64,000 bases of DNA, from positions 4,288,269 through 4,352,268 of the forward strand of contig NZ_CP073760.1 in NCBI RefSeq assembly GCF_018399035.1. Reading direction: 5' to 3'. The position numbers and the translations under genes are program-made. Under the pieces are notes generated by a model. The model was given only the letters and a program-made list of their open reading frames with translations. It ran no database searches and was not told where the DNA came from. The stretch comes from Thiocapsa sp. Lineage in GTDB: Bacteria > Pseudomonadota > Gammaproteobacteria > Chromatiales > Chromatiaceae. This document shows positions 1 to 58,979 of this stretch, one piece after another. The stretch's first letter is position 1. Every line of letters starts with the position of its first letter.

Positions 1-1370
1 GTGCGCCGAGAATCACGGATGACCTCGTAGAAGCGGGCTTTCTCTCGTACTGGGGGGGCGAGTTTCCCGCCGAGATCCATCGTCAGCTCTCCTTCTACGA
101 AAGGGCGGGCGATTAGGTCGGGCCTGGATGCGACGCCCAATTTAGCGCAGATGAGCTGATAAGCACAAAAACATCCTTGATAAGTCCAGTGTGAATCTGT
201 CTTCCAATAGATTTGATGCTCTTTCTTGATCCGCTGAAAAAAAGGGATGGGGTCAACCGAATGATCTTGAAGAAACAGGGGGCGACGCGGAGCCGTGAGA
301 TAGGCGCGAATGGGATGAGCGGAAAAATGCGGCAGAGGTTCGAGAGAGTACTCGGGATAAACCGATAACTTGTTGGGTGCGAATAGATGAAGGTAGCGGA
401 TTCCAAGCTCGTCAGAGCGTTTCAGGCGCGACTCGAACAGGCGATCCCAAGCCGAGACGAGGGTGCTATCGAAGCGGGGCTTCTGATAGTAGGAAAAAAG
501 TTCGTTGCTTCCTCCCTTGAGGAAAAGCCAGCCGTCACGACCGATCGAGACATCATCCGCTACGGAACTTTGGGTTTCATTGGCAGTTGGCCGCTCTGCG
601 GCTAATGTTAGCCGAGGATGAGAGCAACGCTCGTAAGTAAGCCCGGTCGTATCGCAGAAGCGCTTATAATCGGGATAGAGAAACTTCGATAGCTTCTCGA
701 ATGTCTGAAGATTCACCCGCTCGATCATGGCTCCTGCCGAATATCGAACTTCGGTGAATGTTTCGGTCTCGAATGGTTCCAATCCGAGGAAATCGAAGAC
801 GCGTGACATCGTCCGCCGAGGTTGCATGAGCAGGTCGCTGTTGCTGAGAACGAGTATTTCGCTGCGATCGTAAACTTGCAGGAAGGTCAACATCCGGCGC
901 TGATAGCAACTAAAAGAAAGTACATCGTGTAAATAATAATCGATGCTCGATGTCTGACTTACCGCGCTTTCGAAGGGGCGAGCGAAGAAGTCGTTAATAT
1001 CGGTTGCAATCAGCTCAGGTACTTTATTGATAATCTGAAGATGTACAAAATGCGAAATTGCGCGCTCGACAGGATCGCGCACGATCAAGATCAACTTGGC
1101 CCGAGGATGAGCAGTCTTGATAGCAGTCGGTAGCTCCGGAGTAAAAGCACAATGAAAATATGTTGGGCTCGCTTCGCCCGTGATCTCGTCGGTTGTCTTG
1201 TTGAAATGGTTCCGATACCAATCTTCGCCGTTCGATCTGTAAAGTGAGAAATAATGGATTTCCTTCAACGCGGCTTTGCTGACATGCGGATGCATACAGA
1301 TGAAGTCATAAAGGACGGTTGTCCCGCATTTCATGGCGCCGATGATGAGGAAATCTGGGTTCGCTGGCAT
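1..1370 (-). CDS. Partial CDS (C-terminus beyond window edge): N-terminal sulfotransferase domain fused to an AlgX/AlgJ-like (SGNH-type) O-acetyltransferase-like domain
   Basis: Absent from the ORF track because it has no stop inside the window. Hand translation from ATG at 1370 gives MPANPDFLIIGAMKCGTTVLYDF...LILIVRDPVERAISHF (PAPS-binding KCGTT and RDP..R..S motifs). The frame stays open to nt 3. The distal part reads ...FFQRIKKEHQIYWKTDSHWTYQGCF (D-x-H-W motif of AlgJ/AlgX-type acyltransferases). Visibly AT-richer than the flanks. Confidence 0.7.
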   Translation of the reverse strand, partial: MPANPDFLIIGAMKCGTTVLYDFICMHPHVSKAALKEIHYFSLYRSNGEDWYRNHFNKTTDEITGEASPTYFHCAFTPELPTAIKTAHPRAKLILIVRDPVERAISHFVHLQIINKVPELIATDINDFFARPFESAVSQTSSIDYYLHDVLSFSCYQRRMLTFLQVYDRSEILVLSNSDLLMQPRRTMSRVFDFLGLEPFETETFTEVRYSAGAMIERVNLQTFEKLSKFLYPDYKRFCDTTGLTYERCSHPRLTLAAERPTANETQSSVADDVSIGRDGWLFLKGGSNELFSYYQKPRFDSTLVSAWDRLFESRLKRSDELGIRYLHLFAPNKLSVYPEYSLEPLPHFSAHPIRAYLTAPRRPLFLQDHSVDPIPFFQRIKKEHQIYWKTDSHWTYQGCFCAYQLICAKLGVASRPDLIARPFVEGELTMDLGGKLAPPVREKARFYEVIRDSRR

Positions 1371-1506
1371 AAGTGATCGTTAATCGCTGTGAAGAATTAT
1401 CGTCGAAAAGGCGTTCGTGCTGCCCGGGCTCCGACTATCGAAAATCGGTTCAGGAAACTCTTTCCCGATGTCGTAATTCAACATGTCATCGGATGAGCGC
1501 TGGACG

Positions 1507-4500
1507 CTACTCGATCCGCGCTTTTACAGAATCGGTGTATTCAAGTTGCCTGATTTGAATCTTCGCGTTCGCTGGGTCGAGCGAGTTGACGAGTTGGTGC
1601 ATGCGACGAATCTCCGATAGGTGAGTGCTCAAGGTGTTAGAGCCGCCAACACTTGAATCATGACGACGATGCTCGTTTAGAGATTTGGCTGTATAGTGCA
1701 CTCGTCCTGGACTCGTGCAGAGCTCAATATAAAGCCGCCAGTCACCGGAGATCGTCCAATCGGGTAGCTCTTGAGCGACGGATTCGAGGGCGGTTATCAA
1801 TGGCTGACGACGGAACATGACGCTGCTGACGTTCAAAATCGAATTCTTGATCGCTAGACCCTGAAGAAGAAACTCGGAGGTCGGAACGGAAAAGTCAGAA
1901 TGATAGTCGAGATCACTCGACTCCGAGCAATATGTCGAGTAGCTGGATCCGATTCGGACTCCGTCGCTGTCGAGTTGAGCCGAGTCTGAGAAAGCGAAAA
2001 GAACATCTTCCTCACGAGCGAATACCTCCGCGAGACCACTCACGAAATTGGATGCAGCAAGATCATCCGCCTCGGCGATCCAAACAAGATCGCCCTGAGC
2101 GAGTCGAATACCCTTCGACCATTGTCTGAACACTGAGCCTGAGTTCTTGGAGTTAAGCTCAAGTCGAATATCGCGCTGATGATGGTCTGCGATCCTTTCT
2201 ATCGTTTCAACGCTATCGTCCGTCGAAGAGTCGTCCAATACGATAATCTCGTAGATGGGGTAGTCTTGTCGGAGAATGCTGCCGAGTCGTTCCTGTAAGT
2301 AACGCGCATAATTATAGTTTGGTACGATCACGGAGACTCGGAGTAATCGAGGGTCGAGAGCTCGCAGCAAAGCCCAGCCATAGGAAGGGAAGTCAAAATC
2401 GGATCGGGCTCGCAGGGCGCGCTTTTCTCGGCGAGTCGGGTCGGCGAGATCTTTGGTTACGACTGCGCGGAGGGCTGATGCAAGGGCGCCAATATCACCG
2501 ATGTTGGTTGCGAGTGCCCCGTTAACCGCGTCGCTTAGGATCTCACAGTGTCCGCCGGTGCCAGCGAAAGCGACGACGGGGAGACCGCATGTTAGTGCTT
2601 CAAGCACGACTGAAGGGAAGGGATCTTCTCTCGAAGTCAGCAAGAAAGCATCGGCAGCCGCATAATATTGACCGATGGACGTCGTGAAGTCGAGATGGTG
2701 AAGGTTCGTGCAGAGTGGTTGAGTCAGACGGGCTTCTTGAAAGCGCTCCTCTTGGTCGACAGCGAGCTTGCCAACCCATAGGAAGTGGAAGCGAGAATCG
2801 CTCCTTGAAACTTCTGTCGCACAGTCGACGAACCAATCGATGCCTTTGCGTAGATCACCATAGCCGGCGTTGATCACGAGCACGGCTTGGCTCGGGATGC
2901 CGAGAGTCTGTCTGACGTCACGACGTACATCGGGCTCGACGTCCAACGACTGATAGACTCCCTGCGGTAAGACAAGGCACTTTGAAGGCTCGCATGGCGC
3001 GATGGACATGAATGCCTTTCGAACGGTGTCGCAGGCGAAGACGATGCGATCGGCGTGGTGTGCCAATGCGCGAGCTGGGGAGTAGAGATCGCGCTCTTGA
3101 ATCAACTCGGGCATTTCGTGTACGAGCGAGATGACGAAAAAACCTTGCAGCTTGAGGGCTCCAGCGACTTCTCCTGTGACGACCGTGTTCGTCAGGGCCG
3201 CTTCGAAACCCGCTTGCTTGAGCTGCAACATTGTTGACTCAAAGTCTGAGAACTGGTTTGAGATAGTGAAAACGTCAGCGAACTGTCGGTAATCCGAAAC
3301 GAGATCACCGCCTTCAAGGAGCCAGATCCCGACTCGGTAACCAAACCGTCGCTTGAATAGTCGAGCGAGATGTAGGAGGAGCAATTGTGCGCCATGCTTA
3401 TGCGCATCGTGCCCGACCAAGAGTATGCTGTGTTGAGTCGTCAGGTCAGCCATAGAGGGCCTTGAAACCGCCGGGCCTTCGAGTTGGAGCAAGACCTCGC
3501 GGGTCGCATGAAGGTAGGCATAGCCATGACGTCGATCCGGCTCCAGATAGGTGCCCTCCGCCCATTCGTTCCAGGCATTGACGAAAACCAAGCGTTTTTC
3601 CGGTAGCGGAAAACCAAGGGAGCGCTTGCATGCAGCAGTCAACCACCGTGTATATTCACGGGGTGAAGCGTTCGCAAAGATACTGCCCTTAGCGTTGCGT
3701 CTAGGTGTATTGTCCCATGCGGCCATGACACCCGGAAAGAGCTCGAATGGGGAGGTGGTGCTGATCCGAGCTTCGGCCTCGTCGACGAAGGCCCGATAAT
3801 CGTATACATGTCCTTCGAAATTCGGGTTCAGTAGCTCGACATTATCCGTGATGTCGATGTGTGGGAATTGATGAGGTGGAAACTCCACTGCTGCATCGAA
3901 CCCGATCGATTCGGGCTCGACGATCCGGGGAAAGCTCAGGACGTTCACGAGATAGGGTTGGGGCATGCCCCGGTCTCTCGCATATTCCCGCCAGCGCTCG
4001 ACTGTTGCGCGAATGTCGGGAAACAATTGGGGGCGGTAGATGATCAGCAGTGGCCGCCCCTCAATCGTGATATAACGCGGATCGCGGAGTGCAGGCTCGA
4101 TATCCGCGAAGAAGGCCAAGTCATCATCCGGCGAGTGGTTTTGTGCGATGAGGACGTCCTGCTCATATCCGTCCCAACGTCGGGTCCAATTCTCGTTGGC
4201 CCAGCAAATACAAAATGGGAAATCGAGGGATGGATCCTCGAGCATCTGCTGAAGCGGCTGCTCGAGTAGTCTTTGACCGCCGAACCAATAATGGTGGTAA
4301 CAGAACCCCTGTATCCCATACCTCTTGGCGAGGCGGATCTGTTCCCGTTGCGTTTCTTTGACCCTCAGATCGTAGAAACCGAGGGCATCCGGAAACCTAG
4401 GTTGATCGTGTCCCACAAATTGCGGGACTGCCTTTGTGACATTGGTCCACTCGGTGAAACCCTTGCCCCACCAGGCATCGTTTTCAGGAATCGGGTGAAA

Positions 4501-7500
4501 CTGAGGCAGATAAAATGCGATGACCTTCACGGCGAGATCGGTCATGGCGTTTTGATCATCTGAATCCGGCACGTATTCGGCGCTTCGCTGAGATCGACCA
4601 GCGCTGTCGAGCATCGTTTGGTACAGCCTTTTAAAAGGCTCGGATACGCCGGCGCTTTGTCGTGGCTCTGCGCGTGGGCCGAGCCCGCGAGACCGACCGA
4701 AACGCAGGTAATGCGCGAGAGGCGTTTCTTCAAGCGCGTCCACGGCGGTGCATTGAGATCTATACCATGATGTATCGAATCCAGGACTCGGGTCTCGTCC
4801 TTCGCGACCGCCGCTCGCTTGGTAATGGATAAGCGGATTCATCCCGGCCTGAGCTACATCCGGATTGTGGCTCAGATACCAGTCGGAATCGAACAGTGGA
4901 TTGGGATCTCTACCCTCTCGTGCACCTGCAGCCAAATAATGAATCAGTGGATTCATCCGAGCTTCATCAACATCGGGGTTTTCACGCAGATACCAATCCG
5001 AGTCGAACAGTGGGCAAGGGTCTCGGCCTTCGCGAGCGCCATAGACGATGTAATGGACGAGCGGATTGAGTTTTGCAGCCGCGACATCCGGATTCTCTCG
5101 TAGGTACCAGTCCGAGTGGAAGAGTGGATGTGGATCGCGTCCCGCAAACGCGCCGATCGCGAGATAATGTGCCAGAGGGTTCGTGCCTGCCGTGAGGAGC
5201 TCCGGATTGCGAGAGAGATACCAGTCGGAGTCGAACAGTGGGTGGGGATCCCGCCCTTCGTGGCAACCATATCGAATATAGTGATCAAGCGGATTGAGTG
5301 TCGCCGTTGCGACATCTTGATTTTGCTCGAGGTACCAATCGGAATCGAACAGTGGGTTCGGATCGCGACCTTGGAAGGCGCCGGGGCCGAGGTAATCGAC
5401 CAGCGGATTGATATGATCCTCGATGATTTGAGGATACTGATTTATGTACCAATCCGAGTCGAAGAGGGGGGATGGATTCCGTCCCTCGAAAGCACCTTGC
5501 TTGAGGTAATGGGCTAATGGATTGATGCCCGTCTCGACAAGATGTGGATCTTGCTCAAGATACCAGTCCGTATTGAACAGCGGATTGGGATCACGTCCCA
5601 CGCGCCAGCCGATTGCGATGTAATCCTCAAGTGGGGTTGCCCTAGAGAGCACGACGTCTGGGTATTGCTCGATATACCAACGGGAATCAAAGAGTGGATT
5701 CGCCTCGCGACCCTCGTTCCAGTCGTCATTTAAGAACTGTAAAACCGGGTTATGCCCATTCAGAAGGACGTCGGGATTCCTTTGGATATACCAGTCTCGA
5801 TCGAAGAGGCCACTGTTGATGAGTGCTGAGGCGCGAGCGCGTACACGCAGACGACTCGGCAAGCGGAATGACAGTGTCCAAAAAGCGATTTTTGGAAATG
5901 CGATGAGTCCTCGGGCGAGAGTTGGCCATCTGGATTCGATATTGATGAGTGGTCGAGCGAGCTGCCATGTGGCCTTTGCTTGTATCTGATCGAGCCGCTG
6001 TATAACGCGTTTGAGTTCGGCAGCCTGTCCTCGTGACCGCTCGCTATGGTCATGGTTCTGGAGCTGCAACTCTGTGAGGCTGTTTTGCTGTGCGGCGATT
6101 TCGGCATCGCGCTCCACGACGACGCGTTCGAGTCCGGAAGCGTGGCTTCGGTATTGATCAAGTCCATGCTGAAGACCAGCGAGTGCTGCGGTTTGGTTCT
6201 GCTGCTGGTCGGCGAGGGCCTGCTCGAGCTCGCCGATGCGGGACTCGCGCGCGGCGGTTTGGGTGTGCTGGTCGGCGAGGGCCTGCTCGAGCTCGCCGAT
6301 GCGGGACTCGCGCGCGGCGGTTTGGGTGTGCTGGTCGGCGAGGGCCTGCTCGAGCTCGCCGATGCGGGACTCGCGCGCGGCGGTTTGGGTGTGCTGGTCG
6401 GCGAGGGCCTGCTCGAGCTCGCCGATGCGGGACTCGCGCGCGGCGGTTTGGGTGTGCTGGTCGGCGAGGGCCTGCTCGAGCTCGCCGATGCGGGACTCGC
6501 GCGCGGCGGTTTGGGTGTGCTGGTCGGCGAGGGCCTGCTCGAGCTCGCCGATGCGGGACTCGCGCGCGGCGGTTTGGGTGTGCTGGTCGGCGAGGGCCTG
6601 CTCGAGCTCGCCGATGCGGGACTCGCGCGCGGCGGTTTGGGTGTGCTGGTCGGCGAGGGCCTGCTCGAGCTCGCCGATGCGGGACTCGCGCGCGGCGAGC
6701 TCGGCATCGCGCTCCACGACGACGCGTTCGAGTCCGGAAGCGTGGCTTCGGTATTGTTCAAGCCCATGCTGTAGACCAGCGAGTGCTGCGGTTTGGTTCT
6801 GCTGCTGGTCGGCGAGGGCCTGCTCGAGCTCGCCGATGCGGGTCTCGCGCGCGGCGAGCTCGACAGTCTTTTCCGCCAGGTTATCCGCTGTTTCCCGGAG
6901 GGATCTTTCATCGAGTCGCAGGATGGCGCCTAGTGCGTTGCTGGCTCGATCAAGCTCGTTGCGTGTGTTGTCGAGTCGGGGCAGCGGTTCAAGCGAGACT
7001 GGGTCCGATTCCAAGATGCGCAGCGCAGCGAAGGTCTCTTTGACCCAAGGGGCCAAAGCCGGATGACTGGCGACCTTTTCGGCGTCGAGTGCGTGATGGC
7101 GGTGGCGCTCCTCGAGGAACTCGTCGATCTCGACAGCTGATGTCGCCGAGTAGCGGGGCCAAGCAAGGCCGATCCGATCCCCCAAGGTCGTGATGACGCC
7201 GCGCCAATCATTGAGCAAGTCGTCGTAGATCACGAAGGCCCTAGCCAACCCGCGAGAATCGTGCTCGGCATCGAGCACGTGACGGAGCCACAGGATGGAT
7301 GAGAGCGCTGGGCTGAAGCCATCGCGCCGCTTGAGCGACGCAGCGACCTCGAGCGGATTACGTATCGGAATGACGCACTTGGTTTCGGTCTGGAATGCCT
7401 CGAGGACGTCCAGCCAAAAGGGCAGCAAGCGGCAGATGCGCGGATCCTTGAGAACGAAAAGCGATGATCGATCGAAATCCTGCTCCAAGATCTCGAGGGC

Positions 7501-8103
7501 TCGTACCTTGAAGGCACGCGGTGCGGGCGATGCGAACCAGTCTGGATTGAACCGGCGCCAGTCGTCCCAGCTTGAGCCGGCACTGTCGAGGATCTCGTCG
7601 TTGAGGCGATAGATGTCCATCGACTCCCAAAACCCTGCCTCGTTGTTGCCGTCGACCGGGGGCATGAGGTTGGAGGGTAGGTCCGCCCCGAGCCGGTTGA
7701 TCACGCGTGTAAAGGCCGAGGTTCCGCTGCGATGCATCCCGAGCACGAGGATCGCGACGCGACGCGGGGCCGTTGATGGCGCCTGCGGCGCCATGCTCGT
7801 GGGTGACATGGCGACTCGGGTAGGCGATTGGGGCTGGTTCACGCGATTTGGATCTCCATGAGTATCGCCGCGGGTCGCGGATGAGTCGTGTCTGGCATAT
7901 TCTGCGTCCGAGATCGGATCTGGATCGGGTGTGTTATCGTCCTGATCGGACACGTGCTCTGTGACTTGGCGGACCTGGCGGGCCGCTCGATTGATCCGCG
8001 CGGAGCGCTTGGACGACTGGCGCATAATTACTGTTCGGGTTTCGGCTGAAGGAGTCGCACGGTCCGGTACTCGGGAGCCGGCTCGGAGGCTTTCGATGGT
8101 CAC
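1507..8103 (-). CDS. Giant multidomain polysaccharide biosynthesis protein: sulfotransferase / coiled coil / 10x38-aa repeats / WbsX-type / GT4-like / GT2
   Basis: 2198-aa ORF. Motifs: VLGMHRSGTSAF (P-loop sulfotransferase), long heptad region, KVIAFYLPQFHPIPENDAWWGKGFTEWTNV (WbsX hallmark), FLLTSREDPFPSVVLEALTCGLPVV (GT-B EX7E region), VSVIVPNYNYARYL..VLDDSSTDDS (GT2 DxD). The true start is uncertain (GTG 8103, ATG 8025, or later). Confidence 0.85.
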   Translation of the reverse strand: MTIESLRAGSRVPDRATPSAETRTVIMRQSSKRSARINRAARQVRQVTEHVSDQDDNTPDPDPISDAEYARHDSSATRGDTHGDPNRVNQPQSPTRVAMSPTSMAPQAPSTAPRRVAILVLGMHRSGTSAFTRVINRLGADLPSNLMPPVDGNNEAGFWESMDIYRLNDEILDSAGSSWDDWRRFNPDWFASPAPRAFKVRALEILEQDFDRSSLFVLKDPRICRLLPFWLDVLEAFQTETKCVIPIRNPLEVAASLKRRDGFSPALSSILWLRHVLDAEHDSRGLARAFVIYDDLLNDWRGVITTLGDRIGLAWPRYSATSAVEIDEFLEERHRHHALDAEKVASHPALAPWVKETFAALRILESDPVSLEPLPRLDNTRNELDRASNALGAILRLDERSLRETADNLAEKTVELAARETRIGELEQALADQQQNQTAALAGLQHGLEQYRSHASGLERVVVERDAELAARESRIGELEQALADQHTQTAARESRIGELEQALADQHTQTAARESRIGELEQALADQHTQTAARESRIGELEQALADQHTQTAARESRIGELEQALADQHTQTAARESRIGELEQALADQHTQTAARESRIGELEQALADQHTQTAARESRIGELEQALADQQQNQTAALAGLQHGLDQYRSHASGLERVVVERDAEIAAQQNSLTELQLQNHDHSERSRGQAAELKRVIQRLDQIQAKATWQLARPLINIESRWPTLARGLIAFPKIAFWTLSFRLPSRLRVRARASALINSGLFDRDWYIQRNPDVLLNGHNPVLQFLNDDWNEGREANPLFDSRWYIEQYPDVVLSRATPLEDYIAIGWRVGRDPNPLFNTDWYLEQDPHLVETGINPLAHYLKQGAFEGRNPSPLFDSDWYINQYPQIIEDHINPLVDYLGPGAFQGRDPNPLFDSDWYLEQNQDVATATLNPLDHYIRYGCHEGRDPHPLFDSDWYLSRNPELLTAGTNPLAHYLAIGAFAGRDPHPLFHSDWYLRENPDVAAAKLNPLVHYIVYGAREGRDPCPLFDSDWYLRENPDVDEARMNPLIHYLAAGAREGRDPNPLFDSDWYLSHNPDVAQAGMNPLIHYQASGGREGRDPSPGFDTSWYRSQCTAVDALEETPLAHYLRFGRSRGLGPRAEPRQSAGVSEPFKRLYQTMLDSAGRSQRSAEYVPDSDDQNAMTDLAVKVIAFYLPQFHPIPENDAWWGKGFTEWTNVTKAVPQFVGHDQPRFPDALGFYDLRVKETQREQIRLAKRYGIQGFCYHHYWFGGQRLLEQPLQQMLEDPSLDFPFCICWANENWTRRWDGYEQDVLIAQNHSPDDDLAFFADIEPALRDPRYITIEGRPLLIIYRPQLFPDIRATVERWREYARDRGMPQPYLVNVLSFPRIVEPESIGFDAAVEFPPHQFPHIDITDNVELLNPNFEGHVYDYRAFVDEAEARISTTSPFELFPGVMAAWDNTPRRNAKGSIFANASPREYTRWLTAACKRSLGFPLPEKRLVFVNAWNEWAEGTYLEPDRRHGYAYLHATREVLLQLEGPAVSRPSMADLTTQHSILLVGHDAHKHGAQLLLLHLARLFKRRFGYRVGIWLLEGGDLVSDYRQFADVFTISNQFSDFESTMLQLKQAGFEAALTNTVVTGEVAGALKLQGFFVISLVHEMPELIQERDLYSPARALAHHADRIVFACDTVRKAFMSIAPCEPSKCLVLPQGVYQSLDVEPDVRRDVRQTLGIPSQAVLVINAGYGDLRKGIDWFVDCATEVSRSDSRFHFLWVGKLAVDQEERFQEARLTQPLCTNLHHLDFTTSIGQYYAAADAFLLTSREDPFPSVVLEALTCGLPVVAFAGTGGHCEILSDAVNGALATNIGDIGALASALRAVVTKDLADPTRREKRALRARSDFDFPSYGWALLRALDPRLLRVSVIVPNYNYARYLQERLGSILRQDYPIYEIIVLDDSSTDDSVETIERIADHHQRDIRLELNSKNSGSVFRQWSKGIRLAQGDLVWIAEADDLAASNFVSGLAEVFAREEDVLFAFSDSAQLDSDGVRIGSSYSTYCSESSDLDYHSDFSVPTSEFLLQGLAIKNSILNVSSVMFRRQPLITALESVAQELPDWTISGDWRLYIELCTSPGRVHYTAKSLNEHRRHDSSVGGSNTLSTHLSEIRRMHQLVNSLDPANAKIQIRQLEYTDSVKARIE
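4670..5810 (-). repeat. Ten diverged in-frame 114-bp (38-aa) tandem repeats inside the giant CDS
   Basis: The protein repeats DPxPLFDSDWYLxxNPDVxxxxxNPLxHYxxxGxxEGR ten times (aa ~765-1145). Confidence 0.8.
6190..6696 (-). repeat. Perfect 63-bp tandem repeat array (7 identical units + one 66-bp variant) inside the coiled-coil region
   Basis: Units start at 6256, 6319, 6382, 6445, 6508, 6571 and 6634, identical by eye. Each encodes ARESRIGELEQALADQHTQTA. The block is bracketed by a ~160-bp direct duplication (~6097-6255 vs ~6697-6855). Confidence 0.95.
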
Positions 8104-8775
8104 TGTGGGTCATGGATCGGCCGATGTGGGCGTGCGAACCCGGGCTGGGTGGCCGTCACGGAGGTGCTGGGGCTTCTCGTCTCACATGATCATTACCCAT
8201 ACCCCGGACATCTTCCGCAGCAAGCGGGAGATGACAAGCGCGCTGCGCGCAGCCTTCACGGTTTCACGTGCCGGCCGATGGAGCGCCATGGGCAAGGCGC
8301 TGGATCAGATCGAGTTAGGATACTCCAAAGGCCGGGGCGTTTTCCAGCGAGGGCGTTCGATGGGGTGTGACCGAAACGAATGCGCGGTCCGTTTCCGTCA
8401 CGGGGTTCACCAAGCGTCGGGGCGTTTGAGCCGCTGCTGTACGACGATGTAACGGTGCGAGCTTTCGATCTCGCCCGGGGAGCCGAGCCGATGCGCAGAC
8501 CTTGCACAAGTACGCCTTGATACACGAGTCGATCGGTCCGGTTGTCGATTTGGCAGGAATCTCGAAAAATCGAATCCTTGAAAGTTCAAATTTACCGTAA
8601 GTCGAGTAAAGATGTCCACTTATCCGATGCTGGCCGCGGCACGCGAGTGGCGGCCTGGATAATGAAGAAATCCAGTGGGTTGCACTAGCCGAGGGGATCC
8701 GGCAAATGTTGTTGGGGATGCGTGGAGCCTGATCGGAATCTGCACATCTCGCCGAGAATCAGAGTGAAACCTCGC

Positions 8776-10929
8776 ATGTATGGGATCGATCGGGTGCTGC
8801 AGGTCCTTTGGCATTGGTTGCCGCTGAGTGGAAGGTTTAGGTTCGCCGTCAAGTCTTTTGCATTTCGGACCCTTCGGCCATGGTTCAGGGGCACGTCCGC
8901 CTTTAGCGATTGGGTCGAGCAGCAGCAGTGGTCGGACCGCAGCGCGAAGAATGGTACGGAGGATGCACTTGGCGTTTTTGACGGGCCGAGCCCTACACGT
9001 TTGCAAATTGCCTCCGGGGTATCGGATTTGCCGGTGGTGTCCGTAATTATTACGGTTTGTCATCGACTTAAAGACCCAATTGCGTGCATCGATTCCATCG
9101 CTACGCATCCGCCTGCGGTTCCGATCGAGGTCATCGTCATCGACGGTCGCCCGGGCAATGACGTCGATGCGTCTTTAGCTGAGCGCTGTGATATTCGGTA
9201 TCTGCGGATTTCCAAAGATCTCGGCGTCGTGGCCGCCGCGAATAGAGGCGCTGCGCAGGCCCGGGGTGATTTTGTATTTTATCTAACGCAAGACATCCGG
9301 GTTCTTGCCGGGTGGTTGGACGCGTCGATGGCGATCGCGTCGCGAATCCCCGAGGCAGGGGTCGTCGGGAGTCAGCTCTTGTTTCCGAATGGCCGAGTGA
9401 AGGAAGCCGGCCGTATCATCGGGAATGACGGTCGCGCTCGGCGCTACGGCCATCAGCAAGACCCAAGAGCTCCGGAGCTCGGTTTCGTGCGCGATGCCGA
9501 TGCTTTCTCCGGCGATGCGATCCTGGTTCGCCGTAAGTTACTGCAGGATGTCGGCGGTTTCGATCCGAAGTACTCCTGTATCGACTTCGCGGCAATGGAT
9601 CTGTGTTTTGCCCTGCAGGCTCGCGGCTTTCGCGTCATCTATCAGCCGCGCTCGCAGGTCTTCCAGGAGAAACGGGGCCTCACAAGTTGCGATGCCTCGG
9701 GTCGTGAGAACGCCGGTGCGGATCCGGATCGTCATCACTTTACTGCGAAATGGCGGGAGAACTTTGCTGTGCGTTCCGGGTTCGACGAACGGAAAGAGGG
9801 CATCGACGCCGATCGCCGACCTAGGGCGCGGATGCTGATCATCGATGCCTGCACCCCGACGCCTGACCGGGATTCGGGCTCGATCGATCTGCTCAACTAT
9901 TTGCGCGTCCTCGAATCGCTCGACTATCGTGTCACCTTCATGCCGGCGGATCTCTTGTACGCAGGACCCTATACCAGAGATCTCCAGGATTTGGGTGTCG
10001 AGTGTCTCTATTTGCCTTTTGCGCATTCCGCCGAGAAAGTTCTCCGAGCTCGCGGCGATGAATTCGATGTCGTCATGCTTATGCGCCTGGGGCAAGGATC
10101 AAGGTATCTGAAGCGTGTTCGCGCATGTTGTCCGCGCGCGAAGGTTATTTTCAATACGGTCGATCTGCATTATCTGCGCGAGGAGCGGCGGGAGGTAACT
10201 CAGTCCGGAATGCGGGTCAGATCGATTGCCCGCCGCATGAAAGAGCAAGAGCTTGAGGTTGTACGTGAGGCCGACAGTACCATCGTCATCAGTCCGTTCG
10301 AGCGCGAGCTGCTCGCCAAGGAGGTGCCGGCGGCACGCCTACAGGTTATTCCGCTGTTGCGCGAGATTCCAGGCCGCAGTTCGGGCTACGGCGGGAGACG
10401 AGGTATTCTTTTTATCGGCGGTTTTCGTCCCCCGCCGAATGTGGATGCCATCGTCTGGTTTTGCGAGTGCGTCTGGCCTAGCGTGCGTCGTCGGTTGCCC
10501 GAGACCGAGCTTTTGATTGTCGGGAGCTATCCGTCTCCTCGGATTCTTGGACTCAAGGGAAACGGCGTGGAGGTTTTGGGCTATGTCGAGGACATCGAGC
10601 CGCTGTTTGCTCGGGTACGTCTGACGATCGCACCGCTCCGTTACGGCGCTGGGCTTAAAGGCAAGGTGGTGACCAGTCTTGGATACGGAGTGCCCTGTGT
10701 CGTGACTCCGACGGCCGCCGAGGGACTTGGGTTGGACGACGGTCAGGGCATTCTTGTGGCTGCAGAGTCCGAGGCGTTCGCTGCAGCGATCGTGCAGCTC
10801 TACGGGACTGCCGATGAGTGGGAGCGTTCTTCGTTGGCTGGTCTACGCGCGGTTACGGAGCGTTTTTCGGTCAGCGCGAATCGACCTCGGATACTGGACC
10901 TGTTGGCGGAGCTGGGTTTGCCCGCTTGA
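8776..10929 (+). CDS. Bifunctional glycosyltransferase (N-terminal GT2, C-terminal GT-B/GT4-like)
   Basis: ORF 8722..10929, with the first ATG at 8776. Motifs: VVSVIITVCH...VIVIDGRPGND...DFVFYLTQD (GT2) and GILFIGGFRPPPNVDA...LRYGAGLKGKVVTSLGYGVPCVVT (GT-B). Confidence 0.8.
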   Translation: MYGIDRVLQVLWHWLPLSGRFRFAVKSFAFRTLRPWFRGTSAFSDWVEQQQWSDRSAKNGTEDALGVFDGPSPTRLQIASGVSDLPVVSVIITVCHRLKDPIACIDSIATHPPAVPIEVIVIDGRPGNDVDASLAERCDIRYLRISKDLGVVAAANRGAAQARGDFVFYLTQDIRVLAGWLDASMAIASRIPEAGVVGSQLLFPNGRVKEAGRIIGNDGRARRYGHQQDPRAPELGFVRDADAFSGDAILVRRKLLQDVGGFDPKYSCIDFAAMDLCFALQARGFRVIYQPRSQVFQEKRGLTSCDASGRENAGADPDRHHFTAKWRENFAVRSGFDERKEGIDADRRPRARMLIIDACTPTPDRDSGSIDLLNYLRVLESLDYRVTFMPADLLYAGPYTRDLQDLGVECLYLPFAHSAEKVLRARGDEFDVVMLMRLGQGSRYLKRVRACCPRAKVIFNTVDLHYLREERREVTQSGMRVRSIARRMKEQELEVVREADSTIVISPFERELLAKEVPAARLQVIPLLREIPGRSSGYGGRRGILFIGGFRPPPNVDAIVWFCECVWPSVRRRLPETELLIVGSYPSPRILGLKGNGVEVLGYVEDIEPLFARVRLTIAPLRYGAGLKGKVVTSLGYGVPCVVTPTAAEGLGLDDGQGILVAAESEAFAAAIVQLYGTADEWERSSLAGLRAVTERFSVSANRPRILDLLAELGLPA

Positions 10930-12112: not shown

Positions 12113-13794
12113 TCATGTGTCTTTCTCGTTCTCTTCCGCCACCATCGAGAGCGTTGGTTGCGCACGATTTGTTGACTGTGTTCGTAGCCAGTTGGCAGTG
12201 ACTTCTATCGGGAGTAGCGCGCCCCGGAGTTTTGGAGAGGATTCGACGAATTCCCGCAGCCGATCACCATCGAACAGACCAAACAGCGCTGCTTCGTCAG
12301 CAACAGCGCAGCCTTGATCGGGTGCATTGGCTGCGACTGCAGGCCAGACGTTGCCTGCACCGATTCTGGCAACGACGAATGCACCGCCGACTAGCGCCTC
12401 GTGGACGGAAAGCGAGAAGGTCTCAGGACAAAGTTGCCAACTCACGACGACGTCGATGCGCGACTCGGCGATCGCTTCGACCATTGCATTGCGTTGTTTC
12501 GTATCGACAATGACCGGAATGTTGCGAATAAAGCTGGGTAGAGGAGATCCGGAGTCCGGCGACCCGAGCTGCAGGAATTCGTATCGACCATCGTTGGCCA
12601 GGTGCAGTGCGAGATCCTCGAAAATCGACCATCCTTTTAGAAATGCCCTGGCGCCGAGGTGGGCTACACGAAGCGGTCTGCCAGGAGGGATAGGCATGGT
12701 GCTTCGCTCGGAAGGCGCGGTTATGATACGAGCAATAGGACACGCTTCGCCCTGCGCGTGAGGCAATCCACTACCACGTCGCCAAAGGCTTAGGGCGATT
12801 TCGGACGGTGCCAGCACCGAGGGATGCACTGCCTCGAAGAACTCTCTGATCCGCTTGAGATGAGGTTTACGCTCCTCTCCGTATGAGCAGATGTTGCAGG
12901 CAACGGACATCGGTGGCGGAGCGCCGCAGTAGTCGACATCGTTACGCATGAGCGCGTAACTGGGGCAGAGTGTAAAAAAGTCGTGGATCCAGACGATCGG
13001 GCGCAGATCACCGCTCGCACGGAGAAGCTCAAATACGAACTCAGGGGCGAACCCCATCAGGTGGTGAATGACACATCGCACCTCGATGCCCTGCCTACGC
13101 TGCTCTGCAACGGCGGCAATCAGGTCTACGAACCTGGCTACCCCAGTCCATTTGGTGTCTATTCGAAGGCTGACAGCGAAATCGTCTGCAGGCTCGGGGT
13201 CTGCGAGCATCGGCAGCGGTATCGCGGGAGAAACGTGGAGGTAACGCCAACCGGTTCGGCTGAACGTAGCCTGCTCATCGCCGATGACCAACTGAACACC
13301 ACCGTAGTTTCTGGCGTAGTCGTCATGGCTGAGAGATAGGATCAAACCGCGGCTGGCAGATGAGATCTCAACGGCATCCGATAGTGTGGTTTTCGAGATC
13401 GGCGGTGAACGCTCGGCGCCTTCGATCCATCTTTTCGCTTTGACTCGCGGCGACACGCTGTCTTCAAGCTGCCGCCGGAACGCATCGAGCGGACGGCGAC
13501 GTTGTCGGCCTTCTTGCGAGCCGGCCCAGATGAAATGGAGGAGTGGGTTGATGCCGGCTGCGGCAACGTCGGGGTTTTTGCGAGATAGTAGCCCGTGTCG
13601 AAGAATCGGCTGGGGTTGCGTCCCTCGCGCCAACCAGATTCGAGAAAGTGCGTCAGTGGATCAATGCCCGCGTCGCGCACATCACTATTGGACGCAAGAT
13701 AGTAGCCGCGGTCGAAATGCGCGGCGACCGCCCGGCGTTCGTCTTCGCTTGGGCGGTGCATTACGTCGGGATATCTTGCATCTAAGCTACCCAC
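12113..13794 (-). CDS. Putative glycosyltransferase (GT-B-like C-terminus) with two N-terminal NPDV/EGR repeats; -1 frame break in the given sequence
   Basis: ORFs 13342..13794 and 12113..13633 join as ...FFDTGYYLAK|NPDVAAAGINPLLHF if the T5 run (A5 on the coding strand) at 13575-13579 is one base longer. C-terminal motif: CPETFSLSVHEALVGGAFVV. Confidence 0.6.
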
Positions 13795-13980: not shown

Positions 13981-15384
13981 TCAGGCTCGATGTCGGACCA
14001 GGATCCGGCGCAAAACGGCGCGGAGACGCGGACTGCCGTGGATGATCCGACGGAGTGGAGACGTCAAGCGCCAAGTTGTGCTCATTTCGATCTCGATGGC
14101 TCGACGTTCTGCGGCTAGGGCGCGTTTCTCGAAATCGTCGGCACGGTCTCGCTCTACTCCAAGGGCGGAGAGGCGGTCAAGCGCCTCGACAGATGCGCGA
14201 GCCATTCGAGCCTCCGCGTACTGCGCGCGCTCTTGTTCGGATTCCAGTTGAGCGAGTCGCTCGTCGGCTCGCTCCTTTGCCTGTCTAAGCCCAGCCTCCG
14301 CGTTCTGCACGCGCTCGCGCTCGGTTTCCAGACGCGCGAGCCGCTCGTAGGCCAGCGTCTCGGCCTGTTGTAGTCCAGCTTCGGTTTCGGCTAGCCGGGC
14401 CAAAACATCTTTGTCCGGTAGCGGCTTCGGTTGCCAGCCGGGGCAGAGATAGGTTTCATACTCCTCGCCCCGAAGCCTGTGCACAGCGAGAGCGACCACC
14501 TCTGCGGCGCCGAGACCAACCCAATCACGTTCGCCCCAGCGGGGGGTGCGCCAAAGAGCCTCTTTAAGGTCGTCTTGGTGGTTAACGCGGCGGAGGATGC
14601 AGCCATGACGGAGCATCTCTTCATCCAGCACAGGCGGCGTTTTCGGTGCAGCGAGTATTCCGGCTTCATAGGCTAGTGGTAAAATTGAGACGGTATCGCC
14701 TAGAAAGTTGTCCGGGTTGTGGGCAGGAAAAGCGAAGTAGTAGAGATCCAATCCCCAAGATAGGAGTAAGGCTGCAATGTCCAAGGAGCTCGGGTCTTCT
14801 CTGCACTCGACCCAGATGCTGGTTTCGCCACATCTGAGGTGCTCGGCGTCGCTCTCGAGAACGCCGAGCTCCATCCCTTCCAGGTCGAGCTTTACGAGGT
14901 CGAAGGCTCCGTGTACCGCACGAAGCTCGGCGAGGGTGACAAGGCGTTGCTGAAAGACGGTTTGGCTCCCCGGTGAGGGAGTGGCGCTATCGCCTCCTGC
15001 AACGAAGGACGTCGCACCAAGGTTGCACGGGTCGCAGAGCCCATCATGGAAAGTGCAAGCGGGCCATCCGAGAATCCCTTCGATGACACTGAAAGTGCCT
15101 TTGTGGTTGCGTGCGACATTCTCCTTAAGTAAGGGGATCAGTGCGCTGTTTGCCTCGATCAAGCAGAGATGATCGACGTGCCGCTGGAGCGCGATACCGA
15201 GACCGAAGGTGCCAATGAATGCCCCTGCGTCCAGAATACGAACTCGATCTCTCGGTAGCGTACCGGCAACGAAACGGGCTTCCTCCCACGCCCATTCTCC
15301 GTAGCGATCCAGGAAGCGTCCTATTAGATCCGTCGCCGTGTCCGGAACCGTTAGAGTTCCGTAACGTGTATCAACCTCAGCCAT
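13981..15384 (-). CDS. FkbM-type SAM-dependent methyltransferase with C-terminal coiled coil
   Basis: 467-aa ORF. Motifs: RILDAGAFIGTFGLGIA (SAM-binding glycine motif) and LVKLDLEGMELGVL. The C-terminal ~130 aa are heptad-rich and end in STTWRLTSPLRR. Confidence 0.6.
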   Translation of the reverse strand: MAEVDTRYGTLTVPDTATDLIGRFLDRYGEWAWEEARFVAGTLPRDRVRILDAGAFIGTFGLGIALQRHVDHLCLIEANSALIPLLKENVARNHKGTFSVIEGILGWPACTFHDGLCDPCNLGATSFVAGGDSATPSPGSQTVFQQRLVTLAELRAVHGAFDLVKLDLEGMELGVLESDAEHLRCGETSIWVECREDPSSLDIAALLLSWGLDLYYFAFPAHNPDNFLGDTVSILPLAYEAGILAAPKTPPVLDEEMLRHGCILRRVNHQDDLKEALWRTPRWGERDWVGLGAAEVVALAVHRLRGEEYETYLCPGWQPKPLPDKDVLARLAETEAGLQQAETLAYERLARLETERERVQNAEAGLRQAKERADERLAQLESEQERAQYAEARMARASVEALDRLSALGVERDRADDFEKRALAAERRAIEIEMSTTWRLTSPLRRIIHGSPRLRAVLRRILVRHRA

Positions 15385-15888: not shown

Positions 15889-16685
15889 TTAATGCTCGAC
15901 TTCGGCCATTTCCGTGGCTCGGGAGGGCCGGGAGGTGCCTGGAGCGATGGTGACGGACCCGATTGATTTGGCGGCAGAGTGCCGAGGGCGGTATCGTCCG
16001 ATGTCGACCAAAAACCACGGACGTGCCCGAGCATGTTCTCTCTGCCGACCTCGATTGTATCTGTTCTGCAGCCCTTTGACTGCCTGTTCACCTGTCCGAC
16101 CCTGGCGCATGAGCACGGCTTGCCGGCGGGAACGCTGCTGGCGCAGGTGCCGCGCACGATGGGGCTGAGCGCGGAGCGGCGCTTCGAGCTATCATCGGGT
16201 GCTGAATCGGGAGCAGTGTTCGCCGCGCCAACGGGAAGGTTACAGGAGTCAAGCTGACAGTGTAAAGATCTCGCGAAGCTGACAAGGCGCCCGCAGCAAA
16301 GAAATAGTGGTTGATGATGGCTCCGGCTGAGCCCCGTGCATCTTCACGATCCGTGGATGACGGTGCTTGAGCTTGTCGCGATGATATTCGACAGCCGCGT
16401 ACATGCGCACAGAATAGACGCGGTACAATGAGATCTGGGGGGATCAAATAGAAAGATATGACGAACGCTTACACACCTAAGGAGGCTCGATGACCGCGTT
16501 GGTAAGTAACGAGGTGGAGCCGGCGCGTGACATGCGTTGTTCGACATCCCTTTCACGGATACACTTATCTCTGTCGCTTGAGGTTTGTGTTTGATGTGCG
16601 TCTCCTTTACTCGTCTGGATCCTTATGAATTCGATCATGCGATATAAGTTCTTGTCTGAAGTCGCCTCTGCGGAAGTCTACTGTG

Positions 16686-17537
16686 ATGTCAACTAACGCC
16701 GAACGAGTCCAGTCGCCTTTGATTCAGCAGCTTCGCTTCGGCTTGCAGCCTGAGCAATTACGCCTTGCCTTGGACGATATCCTTGAAGGTTGGCGCCGTC
16801 GCGAGCTCTGGGCGACGCTCGGACTCCACGATGTGCGCCAGCGCTACCGGCGCTCGACGCTCGGTCCTTTTTGGATCACCATCTCGATGGGCGTCATGGT
16901 CTTTGCTTTGGGGCTTCTATACGGTCAGATCTTCGGCCAGGATCTGCAGGAGTATCTACCGTTCCTCGCTGCAGGCTTTATCATATGGGGCCTTGTCTCG
17001 GCAATCATTTTAGGTGGTTGCACAACCTTTATCGCGGCGGAGGGCATGATCCGGCAGCTCAATGCGCCCGTCTCGATCTATGCCTACCGTGAATTGTGGT
17101 CCGGGGTCATTTCCTTTGCCCACAACATCTGGATCTTCGTGGCCGTGGCCTGGTGGTTTGACGTGGGTGTGACCTGGAACATTCTCTGGGTTTTGCCTGC
17201 AGTCTTGATTCTCCTGATCAACGGCTTCTGGATGGCGCTCTTTTTCGGTCTATTGAGCGCGCGCTTTCGCGATGTTCCGCTCATTGTCGGTAGTGTGGTT
17301 CAGGTGCTCTTTTTCCTGACGCCGGTAATTTGGCGGCCCGAGATGTTGCCGGATCGCGCCTTGTTCCTGCAGCTCAATCCCTTTTATCACATGGTCGAGA
17401 TCCTGCGTGCGCCGATGCTGGGCAACGCCCCTGCCTTTGAAAACTGGCTAGCGGTCTTGCTCATCGCGGTGTTCGGGTGGGTGATTACACTCTTTTTTTA
17501 TTCCGCCTACCGTTGGCGGATTGCCTACTGGGTTTGA
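16686..17537 (+). CDS. Polysaccharide/O-antigen ABC exporter permease (ABC-2, Wzm/KpsM family)
   Basis: ORF 16683..17537 (GTG 16683, ATG 16686). Multi-TM protein with LGPFWITISMGVMV and a typical ABC-2 signature region. Immediately upstream of the ATPase gene. Confidence 0.85.
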   Translation: MSTNAERVQSPLIQQLRFGLQPEQLRLALDDILEGWRRRELWATLGLHDVRQRYRRSTLGPFWITISMGVMVFALGLLYGQIFGQDLQEYLPFLAAGFIIWGLVSAIILGGCTTFIAAEGMIRQLNAPVSIYAYRELWSGVISFAHNIWIFVAVAWWFDVGVTWNILWVLPAVLILLINGFWMALFFGLLSARFRDVPLIVGSVVQVLFFLTPVIWRPEMLPDRALFLQLNPFYHMVEILRAPMLGNAPAFENWLAVLLIAVFGWVITLFFYSAYRWRIAYWV

Positions 17538-17548
17538 GGATAGGGACG

Positions 17549-18532
17549 ATGGCATCAATCACTTTGGAGAAGGTCTCGGTCTCTTTCCCGGTCTATAGCT
17601 CGGCGACGCGATCGATCAAGAATCGATTGATACAGAGTGCGACGGGCGGACAGATTCGCTCCGAGTCCGGCTCGGATCGGATCTCGGTTGTACAGGCACT
17701 GCAGGATATCAATCTCAAGCTCGAAAGCGGAGATCGGATCGGATTGGTGGGGCATAACGGGGCGGGCAAGACGACGCTGCTTCGTGTGCTTGGCGGCATC
17801 TACGAGCCGAACGAAGGGCGGGTGTCCATTCAGGGTTCAACCGTGCCCTTGTTCGATATCAGTCTCGGGATGGATCCCGAAAGCACCGGCTATGAGAATA
17901 TCCTCCTCCGCGGACTCTATCTGGGTCTGAGCCGCTCCCAGATGCGTGCGCGGTTGGACGAGATCGCCGATTTTACGGAGCTGGGAGACTTCCTCAACCT
18001 TCCGATTCGCACCTATTCGGCCGGGATGCGGATGCGCCTGGCGTTTGCGGTGTCGACCTCGGTCGCGCCGGACATCCTCTTGATCGACGAAGGTATCGGG
18101 GCCGGGGATGCCGCTTTCCTGGAAAAGGCAAGCCAGCGCTTGAAGCTGTTCACCGAACAGGTCTCGATCATCGTGCTCTCGTCGCATTCCGAGGCGTTGA
18201 TCTCGAAGATGTGCACCAAGGCCGTGTTGATGGAGCACGGTCGTGTGGTCGGGGCAGGCACGACCGAGGCGGTGCTGGAGCAGTATAAAGCGTTGCGCGA
18301 CGGATCTCCGAAAGCGCCGCCGCTCGAGGCTGCGATCTCGCGCGCGTCTACGCCGCAGAAGGCCATTGCGGCGGCGCCCAGTGTGGCAGGCTTAGCGACG
18401 CCCGCAAAAGAGCGAGCCGATTGGGCGGACCAAACCGCGCATTTGCTCCGCGAGCATCGCTGGCAGGATGTGGATCTGGACCGTCTGGTGAAGGAGATGG
18501 AGTCGCTCGCGCGTCCTGAGACGAGGAATTGA
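17549..18532 (+). CDS. Polysaccharide ABC exporter ATP-binding protein (Wzt/KpsT family) with an aberrant C-terminal tail
   Basis: ATG at 17549 (MASITLEKV). Walker A GHNGAGKTT, signature YSAGMRMRL, Walker B ILLIDE. The last ~45 aa (DWADQTAHLLREHRWQDVDLDRLVKEMESLAR) look like the N-terminus of a DUF29 protein. Confidence 0.85.
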   Translation: MASITLEKVSVSFPVYSSATRSIKNRLIQSATGGQIRSESGSDRISVVQALQDINLKLESGDRIGLVGHNGAGKTTLLRVLGGIYEPNEGRVSIQGSTVPLFDISLGMDPESTGYENILLRGLYLGLSRSQMRARLDEIADFTELGDFLNLPIRTYSAGMRMRLAFAVSTSVAPDILLIDEGIGAGDAAFLEKASQRLKLFTEQVSIIVLSSHSEALISKMCTKAVLMEHGRVVGAGTTEAVLEQYKALRDGSPKAPPLEAAISRASTPQKAIAAAPSVAGLATPAKERADWADQTAHLLREHRWQDVDLDRLVKEMESLARPETRN

Positions 18533-49797: not shown

Positions 49798-49868
49798 TAA
49801 CGTCAGCACAACCTACAGGCCAAGATCTCTCACGGAGACACGGAGACATCTCAAGCTGGAATCAGGCC

Positions 49869-49923
49869 GACCCCCGACCCCCGACCCCCGACCCCGACCC
49901 CTGAACCCTGAACCCTGAACCCC
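49869..49923. repeat. Simple-sequence repeats abutting the holA start codon
   Basis: (GACCCCC)x3, (GACCCC)x2 and (TGAACCC)x3, followed directly by C-ATG. Confidence 0.9.
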
Positions 49924-51073: not shown

Positions 51074-51222
<149 letters not shown>

Positions 51223-58937: not shown

Positions 58938-58979
58938 GTCGTTGTCGTAATCGACAACGACAACGACAACGACAACGAC
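58938..58979. repeat. Short family F-like palindrome with (CGACAA)n
   Basis: Sequence GTCGTTGTCGTAATCGACAACGAC(AACGAC)3. Confidence 0.7.

Follow-up and report, generated by a model that had tools for sequence, protein, structure and literature searches.

Coiled-coil molecular rulers are the accepted explanation of modal chain length in O-antigen and related glycans made by pathways that depend on an ATP-binding cassette (ABC) transporter. In the Klebsiella pneumoniae and Escherichia coli systems, an extended coiled coil carries the terminator at its far end, and the polymerase is either fused to the coil (WbbB, ORF6 of K. pneumoniae O7) or recruited at the membrane end (WbdD/WbdA); the coil is described as the ruler of chain length, and insertions into the WbdD coil raise, and truncations lower, the modal length (PMC11231755, PMC5082667, PMC3482155). 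Here, we analyze a 64,000-nucleotide stretch of the genome of a purple sulfur bacterium, Thiocapsa sp. (contig NZ_CP073760.1, positions 4,288,269 to 4,352,268; hereafter, the window), in which the gene for a large multidomain glycan-assembly protein contains seven identical 63-bp units in tandem. The array is genuine and arose very recently by tandem amplification in frame, and it lies in the stalk of a putative single-polypeptide polymerase-terminator of an ABC-transporter-dependent pathway.

A close counterpart in layout is WbbB of K. pneumoniae O12 and Raoultella terrigena, a single protein for polymerization, termination and chain-length control in which the coil serves as the ruler (PMC11231755). 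WbbB and the Thiocapsa protein have in common an N-terminal terminator (putative in Thiocapsa), a central coil (predicted in Thiocapsa) and C-terminal glycosyltransferase (GT) modules on one polypeptide of a wzm/wzt pathway. Unlike WbbB, the Thiocapsa protein has a sulfotransferase fold instead of a beta-Kdo transferase, WbsX, GT4 and GT2 modules instead of the GT modules of WbbB, approximately 370 amino acids (aa) of 38-aa repeats between the stalk base and the GT modules, a Wzt partner without a carbohydrate-binding module, and a stalk of ~334 aa that consists in part of base-identical tandem units.

ORF6 of K. pneumoniae O7 joins a methyltransferase-kinase, a coiled coil and two GT2 modules in one fused protein, and its orthologues in alpha- and gammaproteobacteria and cyanobacteria are in some cases GT-fused and in others end after the coil (PMC11231755). 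The fused terminator-coil-polymerase plan recurs in Thiocapsa, and the occurrence of fused and stand-alone forms parallels that of the sulfotransferase-coil proteins described below. The terminator is of the methyl-phosphate type in ORF6 and presumably a sulfate in Thiocapsa, and the passages of PMC11231755 consulted describe no natural tandem-repeat length variation. WbdD (E. coli O9a, K. pneumoniae O3) carries its terminator atop a ~20-nm coiled coil and uses a C-terminal membrane-associated helix as its anchor (PMC5082667, PMC3482155). WbdD recruits a separate polymerase, WbdA, and its length variants are laboratory-made, whereas those of the Thiocapsa protein are natural and come about via tandem repeats. 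In the literature searched, no account of WbdD-type rulers that vary naturally in length through tandem repeats came to light.

Further afield, the Yersinia injectisome (YscP) and phages (tape-measure proteins) assemble products whose length is set by that of a helical protein, of which natural alleles differ by internal duplications; these are wholly different machines, measuring a protein polymer and not a glycan. The Thiocapsa protein introduces no new principle, as the ruler layout is known; it is set apart by its unrelated catalytic domains and by the natural tandem-repeat variation of its stalk.

Seven identical units in one reading frame

The seven units, which start at 6256, 6319, 6382, 6445, 6508, 6571 and 6634, are the same string, base for base, and period-63 identity is perfect over positions 6203-6697, corresponding to 495 bp or 7.86 copies. 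Tandem Repeats Finder (TRF) returned a period of 63, 7.9 copies, 100% matches and a score of 990, by far the top array of the window, and the periodicity is far above chance. A first-pass annotation of this DNA had proposed seven base-identical units encoding a 21-aa peptide, and both the identity of the units and the peptide (ARESRIGELEQALADQHTQTA, read on the minus strand) were confirmed. Its 66-bp variant is equally real and encodes ARESRIGELEQALADQQQNQTA, differing from the 63-bp unit by a 3-bp indel (one extra codon) and a few substitutions (QQQNQ versus QHTQ); it turned out to be the head of a larger, 159-bp unit. The duplication of ~160 bp that had been noted on either side of the block likewise proved to consist of two 159-bp units, between which the differences are three synonymous and three conservative changes. 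From the N- to the C-terminus, the repetitive part of the stalk therefore reads as one 53-aa unit, seven 21-aa units and a second 53-aa unit (Table 1).

The 21-aa unit comprises exactly three heptads; 53 aa cannot be divided into complete heptads. The annotation was right that a change in copy number stays in frame and, because 21 aa equals three heptads, the coiled-coil register would be kept as well. Its estimate of about 3 nm per unit also holds arithmetically (21 aa correspond to ~3.1 nm of helix). Open reading frames (ORFs) on the plus strand over the array (6046-6774, 6090-7043 and 6236-7066) were rejected as by-products of the GC-rich repeats; the minus frame has more than 1000 homologues.

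Unit number and history in Thiocapsa

Counting units in orthologues, a check suggested along with the first-pass annotation, yielded three different numbers in three Thiocapsa genomes: seven in the window (stalk of 334 aa), five in Thiocapsa sp. C3-sup (193 aa) and one in assembly GCA_036681025.1 (locus L001; 155 aa between the boundary motifs). The L001 protein (P0123) is a syntenic orthologue, 87-91% identical at the DNA level, with a stalk of one 21-aa unit followed by one 53-aa unit. In C3-sup (GCA_041903695.1, locus L084, protein P0012), the homologous 63-bp array has 5.6 copies that are 98% identical, and the 53-aa unit is missing; the boundary motifs are as in the window, and the N-terminal domain aligns closely with that of the window protein. 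A scan of metagenome contigs for the 33-mer spanning the unit junction gave 0 matches, and thus no extra copy-number variants there.

The two 53-aa units in the window match the L001 unit at 136-138 of 159 positions and each other at 153 of 159 (3.8% divergence); the 21-aa unit matches its L001 counterpart at 57 of 63. This divergence pattern indicates that the 21-aa unit is older than the split from L001, that duplication of the 53-aa unit came later, and that the sevenfold amplification came last. In the scenario we propose, both units would have been present in the Thiocapsa ancestor, the 53-aa unit would have been duplicated after the L001 lineage separated, and the 21-aa unit would then have grown to seven copies, which show 0% divergence, through replication slippage or unequal recombination.

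Architecture of the host protein

The window protein is identical to P0122 (QVL47858.1/WP_213501508.1, 'MAG: Thiocapsa sp.', 5.73-Mb contig). Its open frame reaches upstream of the annotated start to a GTG at 8103 (ORF 1507..8103, 2198 codons). From the N- to the C-terminus, it comprises a sulfotransferase-fold domain of ~280 aa, the stalk, a membrane-proximal motif, the 38-aa repeats, WbsX, GT4 and GT2 (Table 1).

Table 1 Features of the array gene and its locus, in window coordinates
Feature	Position	Strand	Basis and remarks
Host gene, 2100-aa multidomain glycan-assembly protein	1507..7809	minus	Start per NCBI call MSPTSMAPQ
N-terminal PAPS-sulfotransferase-fold domain, candidate chain-terminating/capping enzyme	6970..7764	minus	HRSGTS loop, R150-x7-S158 motif
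Stalk, predicted uninterrupted proline-free alpha-helix of ~330-334 aa	5980..6969	minus	Between sulfotransferase domain and membrane-proximal motif; AF2, composition
N-proximal 53-aa (159-bp) stalk unit ARETRIGELEQALADQQQNQTAALAGLQHGLEQYRSHASGLERVVVERDAELA	6694..6852	minus	153/159 identical to C-proximal copy; 138/159 to single copy in orthologue L001
Seven identical 63-bp units, each encoding ARESRIGELEQALADQHTQTA (three heptads)	6253..6693	minus	147 aa, ~22 nm helix; sequence comparison, TRF
C-proximal 53-aa (159-bp) stalk unit	6094..6252	minus	First 66 bp (22 codons) are the 66-bp variant at 6190-6255
Conserved post-stalk motif ATWQLARPL..ESRWP..RGLIAFPKIAFWTLSFRLPSRLRVR	5824..5988	minus	Also in P0004, P0006, P0012, P0015
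38-aa repeat NPLxHYxxxGxxEGRxPxPLFDxxWY, ~9-10 copies	4699..5811	minus	Between stalk base and WbsX; from translation
WbsX (GH99-like, PF14307) domain	3505..4524	minus	Pfam E 4.4e-136
GT4 (Glycos_transf_1) + GT2 modules, candidate polymerizing glycosyltransferases	1960..2922	minus	Pfam; PDB sequence matches to GT2/GT4 enzymes
Second stalk protein: FkbM-type methyltransferase, ~110-aa coil, amphipathic C-terminal tail TTWRLTSPLRR	13981..15384	minus	Profile matches; stand-alone WbdD-like layout
wzm, ABC transporter gene	16683-17537	plus	ABC2_membrane
wzt, ABC transporter gene	17477-18532	plus	ABC_tran; 351-aa ORF

Between the boundary motifs LDxTRxExDRAS and (A/T)(A/T)WQ(L/F)(A/T)RP lie 334 residues without a single proline. 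A single-sequence AlphaFold2 (AF2) model of the stalk folds as one helix over fragment residues 15-344 (330 residues), with a predicted local distance difference test score (pLDDT) of ~90 in the array, and Pfam coiled-coil and SMC-type profiles match the array region. If straight, the stalk would measure ~49-50 nm at 0.1485 nm per residue, to which the seven units would contribute ~22 nm and each single unit ~3.1 nm. Within each 21-aa unit, the three large aliphatic residues, I6, L9 and L13, fall at the a-d-a spacing in the sequence; given Q, T and R at the remaining three core positions, a strong coil is not expected. We infer that the stalk may assemble into an oligomeric coiled coil.

The N-terminal domain was assigned by several routes. 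Pfam Sulfotransfer_3 (PF13469) matched over profile positions 2-215 of 216 with E 8e-5 and 23.4 bits, below the gathering cut-off of 27, and many homologues of the domain hold a precomputed PF13469 match. A protein database search with this domain alone retrieved 4371 homologues, many of them named sulfotransferase family protein; many are stand-alone proteins of 350-530 aa, made up of the domain and a tail of 100-200 aa. Across 91 aligned sequences, R150 is invariant, and conservation reaches at least 90% at S158 and at each position of H26-R27-S28-G29-T30-S31. We take HRSGTS (26-31) to be the 5'-phosphosulfate loop (5'-PSB) and R150-x7-S158 to be the 3'-phosphate (3'-PB) motif of sulfotransferases that depend on 3'-phosphoadenosine-5'-phosphosulfate (PAPS). 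An AF2 model built from that alignment (pLDDT 93.4, predicted template modeling score 0.90) was compared with the PDB using Foldseek, and ranks 1-19 were all sulfotransferases (probability 0.99-1.00, template modeling score 0.33-0.48), including the sulfotransferase domains of olefin synthase and CurM, tyrosylprotein sulfotransferases, Stf9 and SULTs. Together, the predicted model, the Foldseek ranking and the motif conservation establish a sulfotransferase fold with PAPS-binding motifs. By analogy with the known terminators, the domain is presumed to be a chain-capping enzyme. Relatives carry a methyltransferase instead of the sulfotransferase at the same N-terminal position of the same chassis.

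At the stalk base, the host protein reads ATWQLARPL...RGLIAFPKIAFWTLSF..., and the counterpart of this motif in Rhodobacter capsulatus homologues is STSWRITAPLR. AF2 confidence is low across the motif, which is probably a membrane-associated or amphipathic segment. The 38-aa repeats that follow gave no match in a Pfam scan. Period-38 repeats are also seen in homologues, and in C3-sup they are encoded by a 114-bp DNA array (L084 11795-12561; 6.7 copies, 89% identity), from which it appears that this segment is expanding as well. The 38-aa repeat is also found at the start of the ORF at 12113-13633. NCBIfam returned only generic GT and SMC-like sub-threshold matches on the host protein. The candidate polymerizing GTs, which accompany the stalk in WbdD/WbbB-type ruler systems, are present here as WbsX, GT4 and GT2 on the stalk polypeptide itself.

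The GC content is 0.50-0.58 at 1201-6000, the polymerase half, versus 0.62-0.69 at 6001-8400, which encodes the N-terminal domain and the stalk. C3-sup, with the N-terminal domain and stalk type in common with the window, has an RgpF-type polymerase instead (RgpF + GT2 + GT4). The GC contrast and this replacement suggest that polymerase modules may have been swapped onto a conserved terminator-stalk chassis.

Heptad-multiple repeats across the family

To place the array in a wider context, we surveyed 240 relatives from two protein searches, all from outside the window's own strain, and counted repeats in the N-domain-plus-stalk part. Near-identical tandem repeats occur in 28 of these relatives (~12%), all but two of which (26) have a repeat period divisible by seven residues (binomial p = 3e-20, with an expectation of 1/7 for a multiple-of-7 period). 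Tandem repeats in heptad register thus recur across the family, with periods of 7, 14, 21, 28, 35, 42 and 49 residues; examples include 13 copies of QGISERDSRLEALH, four identical copies of a 28-mer and six copies of ERNAQIE. At the DNA level, TRF detected arrays in many related loci, either at the gene match or a short way upstream of it, with periods of 21, 42, 63, 84 and 126 nt. These loci came from a search of genome contigs in which the matches listed comprised relatives 37-55% identical and no Thiocapsa; among the matches listed, those with arrays include the isolates Mesorhizobium sp. B2-4-15 and Massilia eburnea JCM 31587 and a closed Candidatus Manganitrophus genome.

An informative pair is found in Rhodobacter capsulatus, where strains SP18 (L019) and DSM 1710 (L028) encode full-length homologues ~44% identical to the query that differ by 119 aa in the spacing between the sulfotransferase motif and WbsX. 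DSM 1710 alone has a run of ~17 degenerate LTETRxQ heptads, in place of which SP18 shows a duplication of 18 aa (ALLQQRDKQLIGERDQSQ). Both strains have a gene for a Wzt-like ATPase ~2.3 kb upstream. Over 33 relatives, the stalk ranges from 44 to 334 aa by a crude motif-to-motif measure. Differing copy numbers and the bias toward heptad multiples indicate, at the sequence level, that the stalk changes its length over evolution by in-register tandem duplication. Stand-alone sulfotransferase-plus-coil proteins are abundant among the homologues, and this sequence survey points to a large uncharacterized family of candidate sulfate-capping terminators.

An ABC-transporter-dependent glycan locus

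The first-pass annotation had placed the array inside a coiled coil and linked it to polysaccharide length, and the locus agrees with this: the array lies in a long predicted helical stalk, and wzm and wzt, located 9 kb from the array gene and also present at the syntenic loci L001 and L084, assign it to a glycan pathway that depends on an ABC transporter. The interval between the array gene and wzm/wzt encodes a GT2+GT4 protein (8722-10929), a GT8-like protein and further ORFs. Synteny is retained in L001, L084 and L002 (a same-strain assembly introduced below), and the C3-sup locus has orthologous wzm, wzt and FkbM genes.

The FkbM-type methyltransferase encoded between the array gene and wzm is a second stalk protein, resembling WbdD in its stand-alone layout. 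Within its coil, 84 bp (28 aa, four heptads) are duplicated in tandem at 14209-14368, with 77% matches. In the syntenic loci, genes for a sulfotransferase-ALGX fusion, a sulfatase, a pyruvyl transferase and more GT2 enzymes are found downstream of the array gene, past window position 1 (L001 16116-17840 and 21402-23315; L002 15006-16706 and 20532-22445). Such a gene set is consistent with a sulfated, otherwise decorated polysaccharide. A literature search on sulfate-capped glycans in wzm/wzt systems, within a scope that did not extend to the terminator survey of Mann et al. 2019, returned nothing pertinent.

Stalk length and glycan length

The reading we favor, with moderate confidence, is that the array lengthens the ruler of a polymerase-terminator whose sulfotransferase-fold domain caps or modifies chains that have become long enough, and whose stalk evolves by the gain and loss of whole heptads. 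By analogy with the characterized systems, stalk length would then set the modal length of the glycan. The stalk would keep the sulfotransferase-fold domain ~50 nm from the membrane-proximal motif and the C-terminal GT modules, and a growing undecaprenol-linked chain would have to span about that length before being capped, as in WbbB and WbdD. Gain or loss of one unit, through slippage or unequal exchange over evolutionary time, would preserve the register and shift the distal domain by ~3.1 nm. The first-pass annotation had already raised the idea of a ruler. It is supported by the terminator/coiled coil/polymerase layout, for which experiments on WbdD and WbbB have demonstrated a ruler function; the hallmark carbohydrate-binding module of Wzt is absent, and the function is deduced from architecture only.

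Several observations weigh against this reading. A profile scan and the translation of the 351-aa ORF revealed no recognizable carbohydrate-binding module in Wzt, in which the nucleotide-binding domain is followed by ~75 aa of Ala/Pro-rich low complexity and then a DUF29 fragment (E 1.9e-6), a tail that is the same in L084; cap-gated export, and hence strict control by a ruler, may therefore not apply. PDB sequence searches with the N-terminal domain and with the C-terminal half returned neither WbdD nor WbbB, so that the likeness to these proteins, lacking sequence homology in the catalytic domains, is architectural only. With regard to the stalk, strongly hydrophobic residues occupy only 3 of the 6 a/d core positions per unit, and a crude sliding-window test for 3.5-residue hydrophobicity periodicity gave a flat profile over the units, in which just I, L and L are strong hydrophobes and the test is uninformative; the stalk is consequently not demonstrated to form a stable oligomeric coil. 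The a/d placement and the AF2 helix were relied on instead. The sulfotransferase domain might sulfate along the chain instead of capping it, and a further sulfotransferase and a sulfatase are found nearby in the syntenic loci. The presence of the FkbM protein, a terminator-like coil protein in its own right, complicates the assignment of the terminator, and the locus may contain two terminators or serve two glycans. Finally, L001 comes from a metagenome assembly of unestablished sequencing platform, so its array could have collapsed and its single 21-aa unit could be a lower bound; yet the single 53-aa unit of L001 is what the divergence pattern predicts.

The strongest competitor to a ruler is a neutral spacer or oligomerization domain, required only as an unbroken coiled coil that keeps the complex together and with a length under weak selection, so that slippage-prone repeats drift up or down without an effect on the glycan and the heptad bias merely reflects selection for register. 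The wide spread of stalk lengths across the 33 relatives and a Wzt devoid of a cap-reading module are what such a spacer would lead one to expect, and a heptad-multiple constraint is expected of any coiled coil. Against it, coil length sets chain length in every characterized system of this layout (PMC11231755, PMC5082667). In addition, the enzyme domain is always distal and enzyme types are exchanged on the same chassis, which fits a positioned terminator better. We regard a neutral spacer as less likely than a ruler.

Unit number within a strain

The first-pass annotation had suggested a built-in switch and had cautioned that such arrays are easily mis-assembled, and other assemblies of the same strain bear on both points. 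L003 (GCA_018400095.1) is 99.95% identical to the window over 10.8 kb and L002 (GCA_018401635.1) is 99.86% identical over 16.3 kb, which identifies each as the same strain. Nearly all of their differences from the window fall within the array, which contains local indel or garbled consensus errors (L003 4113-4607, L002 9642-10137); gene and array length are nevertheless equal to within 1 nt, and TRF reports 7.9 copies in each. At the level of the consensus, the window and its two separately polished sister assemblies thus all have seven units.

The 90% cluster of the host protein contains four other sequences, among which P0001/P0121 (WP_213460646.1), with a frameshifted, garbled stalk, and P0124, with 1610 aa, look aberrant. 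Because the arrays are full length in the DNA, we consider these to be products of consensus errors and not alleles. P0124, which begins inside the stalk and has one unit, was accordingly rejected as a one-unit allele: its DNA has the full-length array and a frameshifting error, and the short protein is a truncated gene call. As a practical warning, two public protein records of the array gene are garbled or truncated by consensus errors in the array.

A high-frequency contingency switch would have units gained and lost within a population, at ~1e-3 to 1e-5 per generation, giving subpopulations with differing glycan modal length. Tandem repeats are prone to instability through slippage and unequal exchange, and 495 bp of perfect 63-bp periodicity are a good substrate for both. 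Copy number does differ among Thiocapsa genomes, and units without any divergence imply that change was very recent or that homogenization is still under way. The three concordant assemblies nonetheless argue against rapid switching at the consensus level, and the C3-sup array, having already diverged to 98% identity, shows that arrays last long enough to diverge. Variation within the strain is thus not supported, and we consider a fast switch improbable. An extension of the same idea, equally speculative, is population-level tuning, in which slippage would yield cells with the terminator 3 nm nearer to or farther from the membrane and phase-variable chain length would reside in the ruler itself. 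Were this the case, clonal Thiocapsa would display a selectable spectrum of surface-glycan modal lengths, and heptad arrays in other phyla would be the same device.

That the unit number is an expansion or collapse introduced by an assembler or polisher is highly improbable: identical tandem units are a classic assembler problem and the consensus errors in two sister assemblies do break or frameshift the predicted protein (P0001, P0124), but the three assemblies, each polished separately (contigs of 0.39, 0.91 and 5.7 Mb), differ by no more than 1 nt in total array length, the whole repeated block of ~760 bp is easily spanned by long reads, the frame is intact, and a homologous 63-bp array exists in another genome, that of C3-sup.

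Natural variants as a test of the ruler model

The case for coiled-coil rulers has so far been built on two or three enterobacterial proteins with engineered insertions and deletions; comparable changes are found in nature here and in ~12% of the 240 relatives, where near-identical units of whole heptads lengthen the stalk. The Thiocapsa genomes provide a natural allelic series (1, 5 and 7 units; stalks of 155, 193 and 334 aa) with which the ruler model could be tested outside Enterobacteriaceae, and the culturable R. capsulatus pair SP18/DSM 1710 could serve the same end. Collectively, the comparison suggests that the gain and loss of whole-heptad repeats is a simple mutational route for the evolution of surface-glycan length.

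Elsewhere in the window, short tandem repeats are present as CCGACCC x8 (49867-49923), a 6/12/18-bp TCGTTG-type array (51103-51183) and CGACAA x4.7 (58952-58979).

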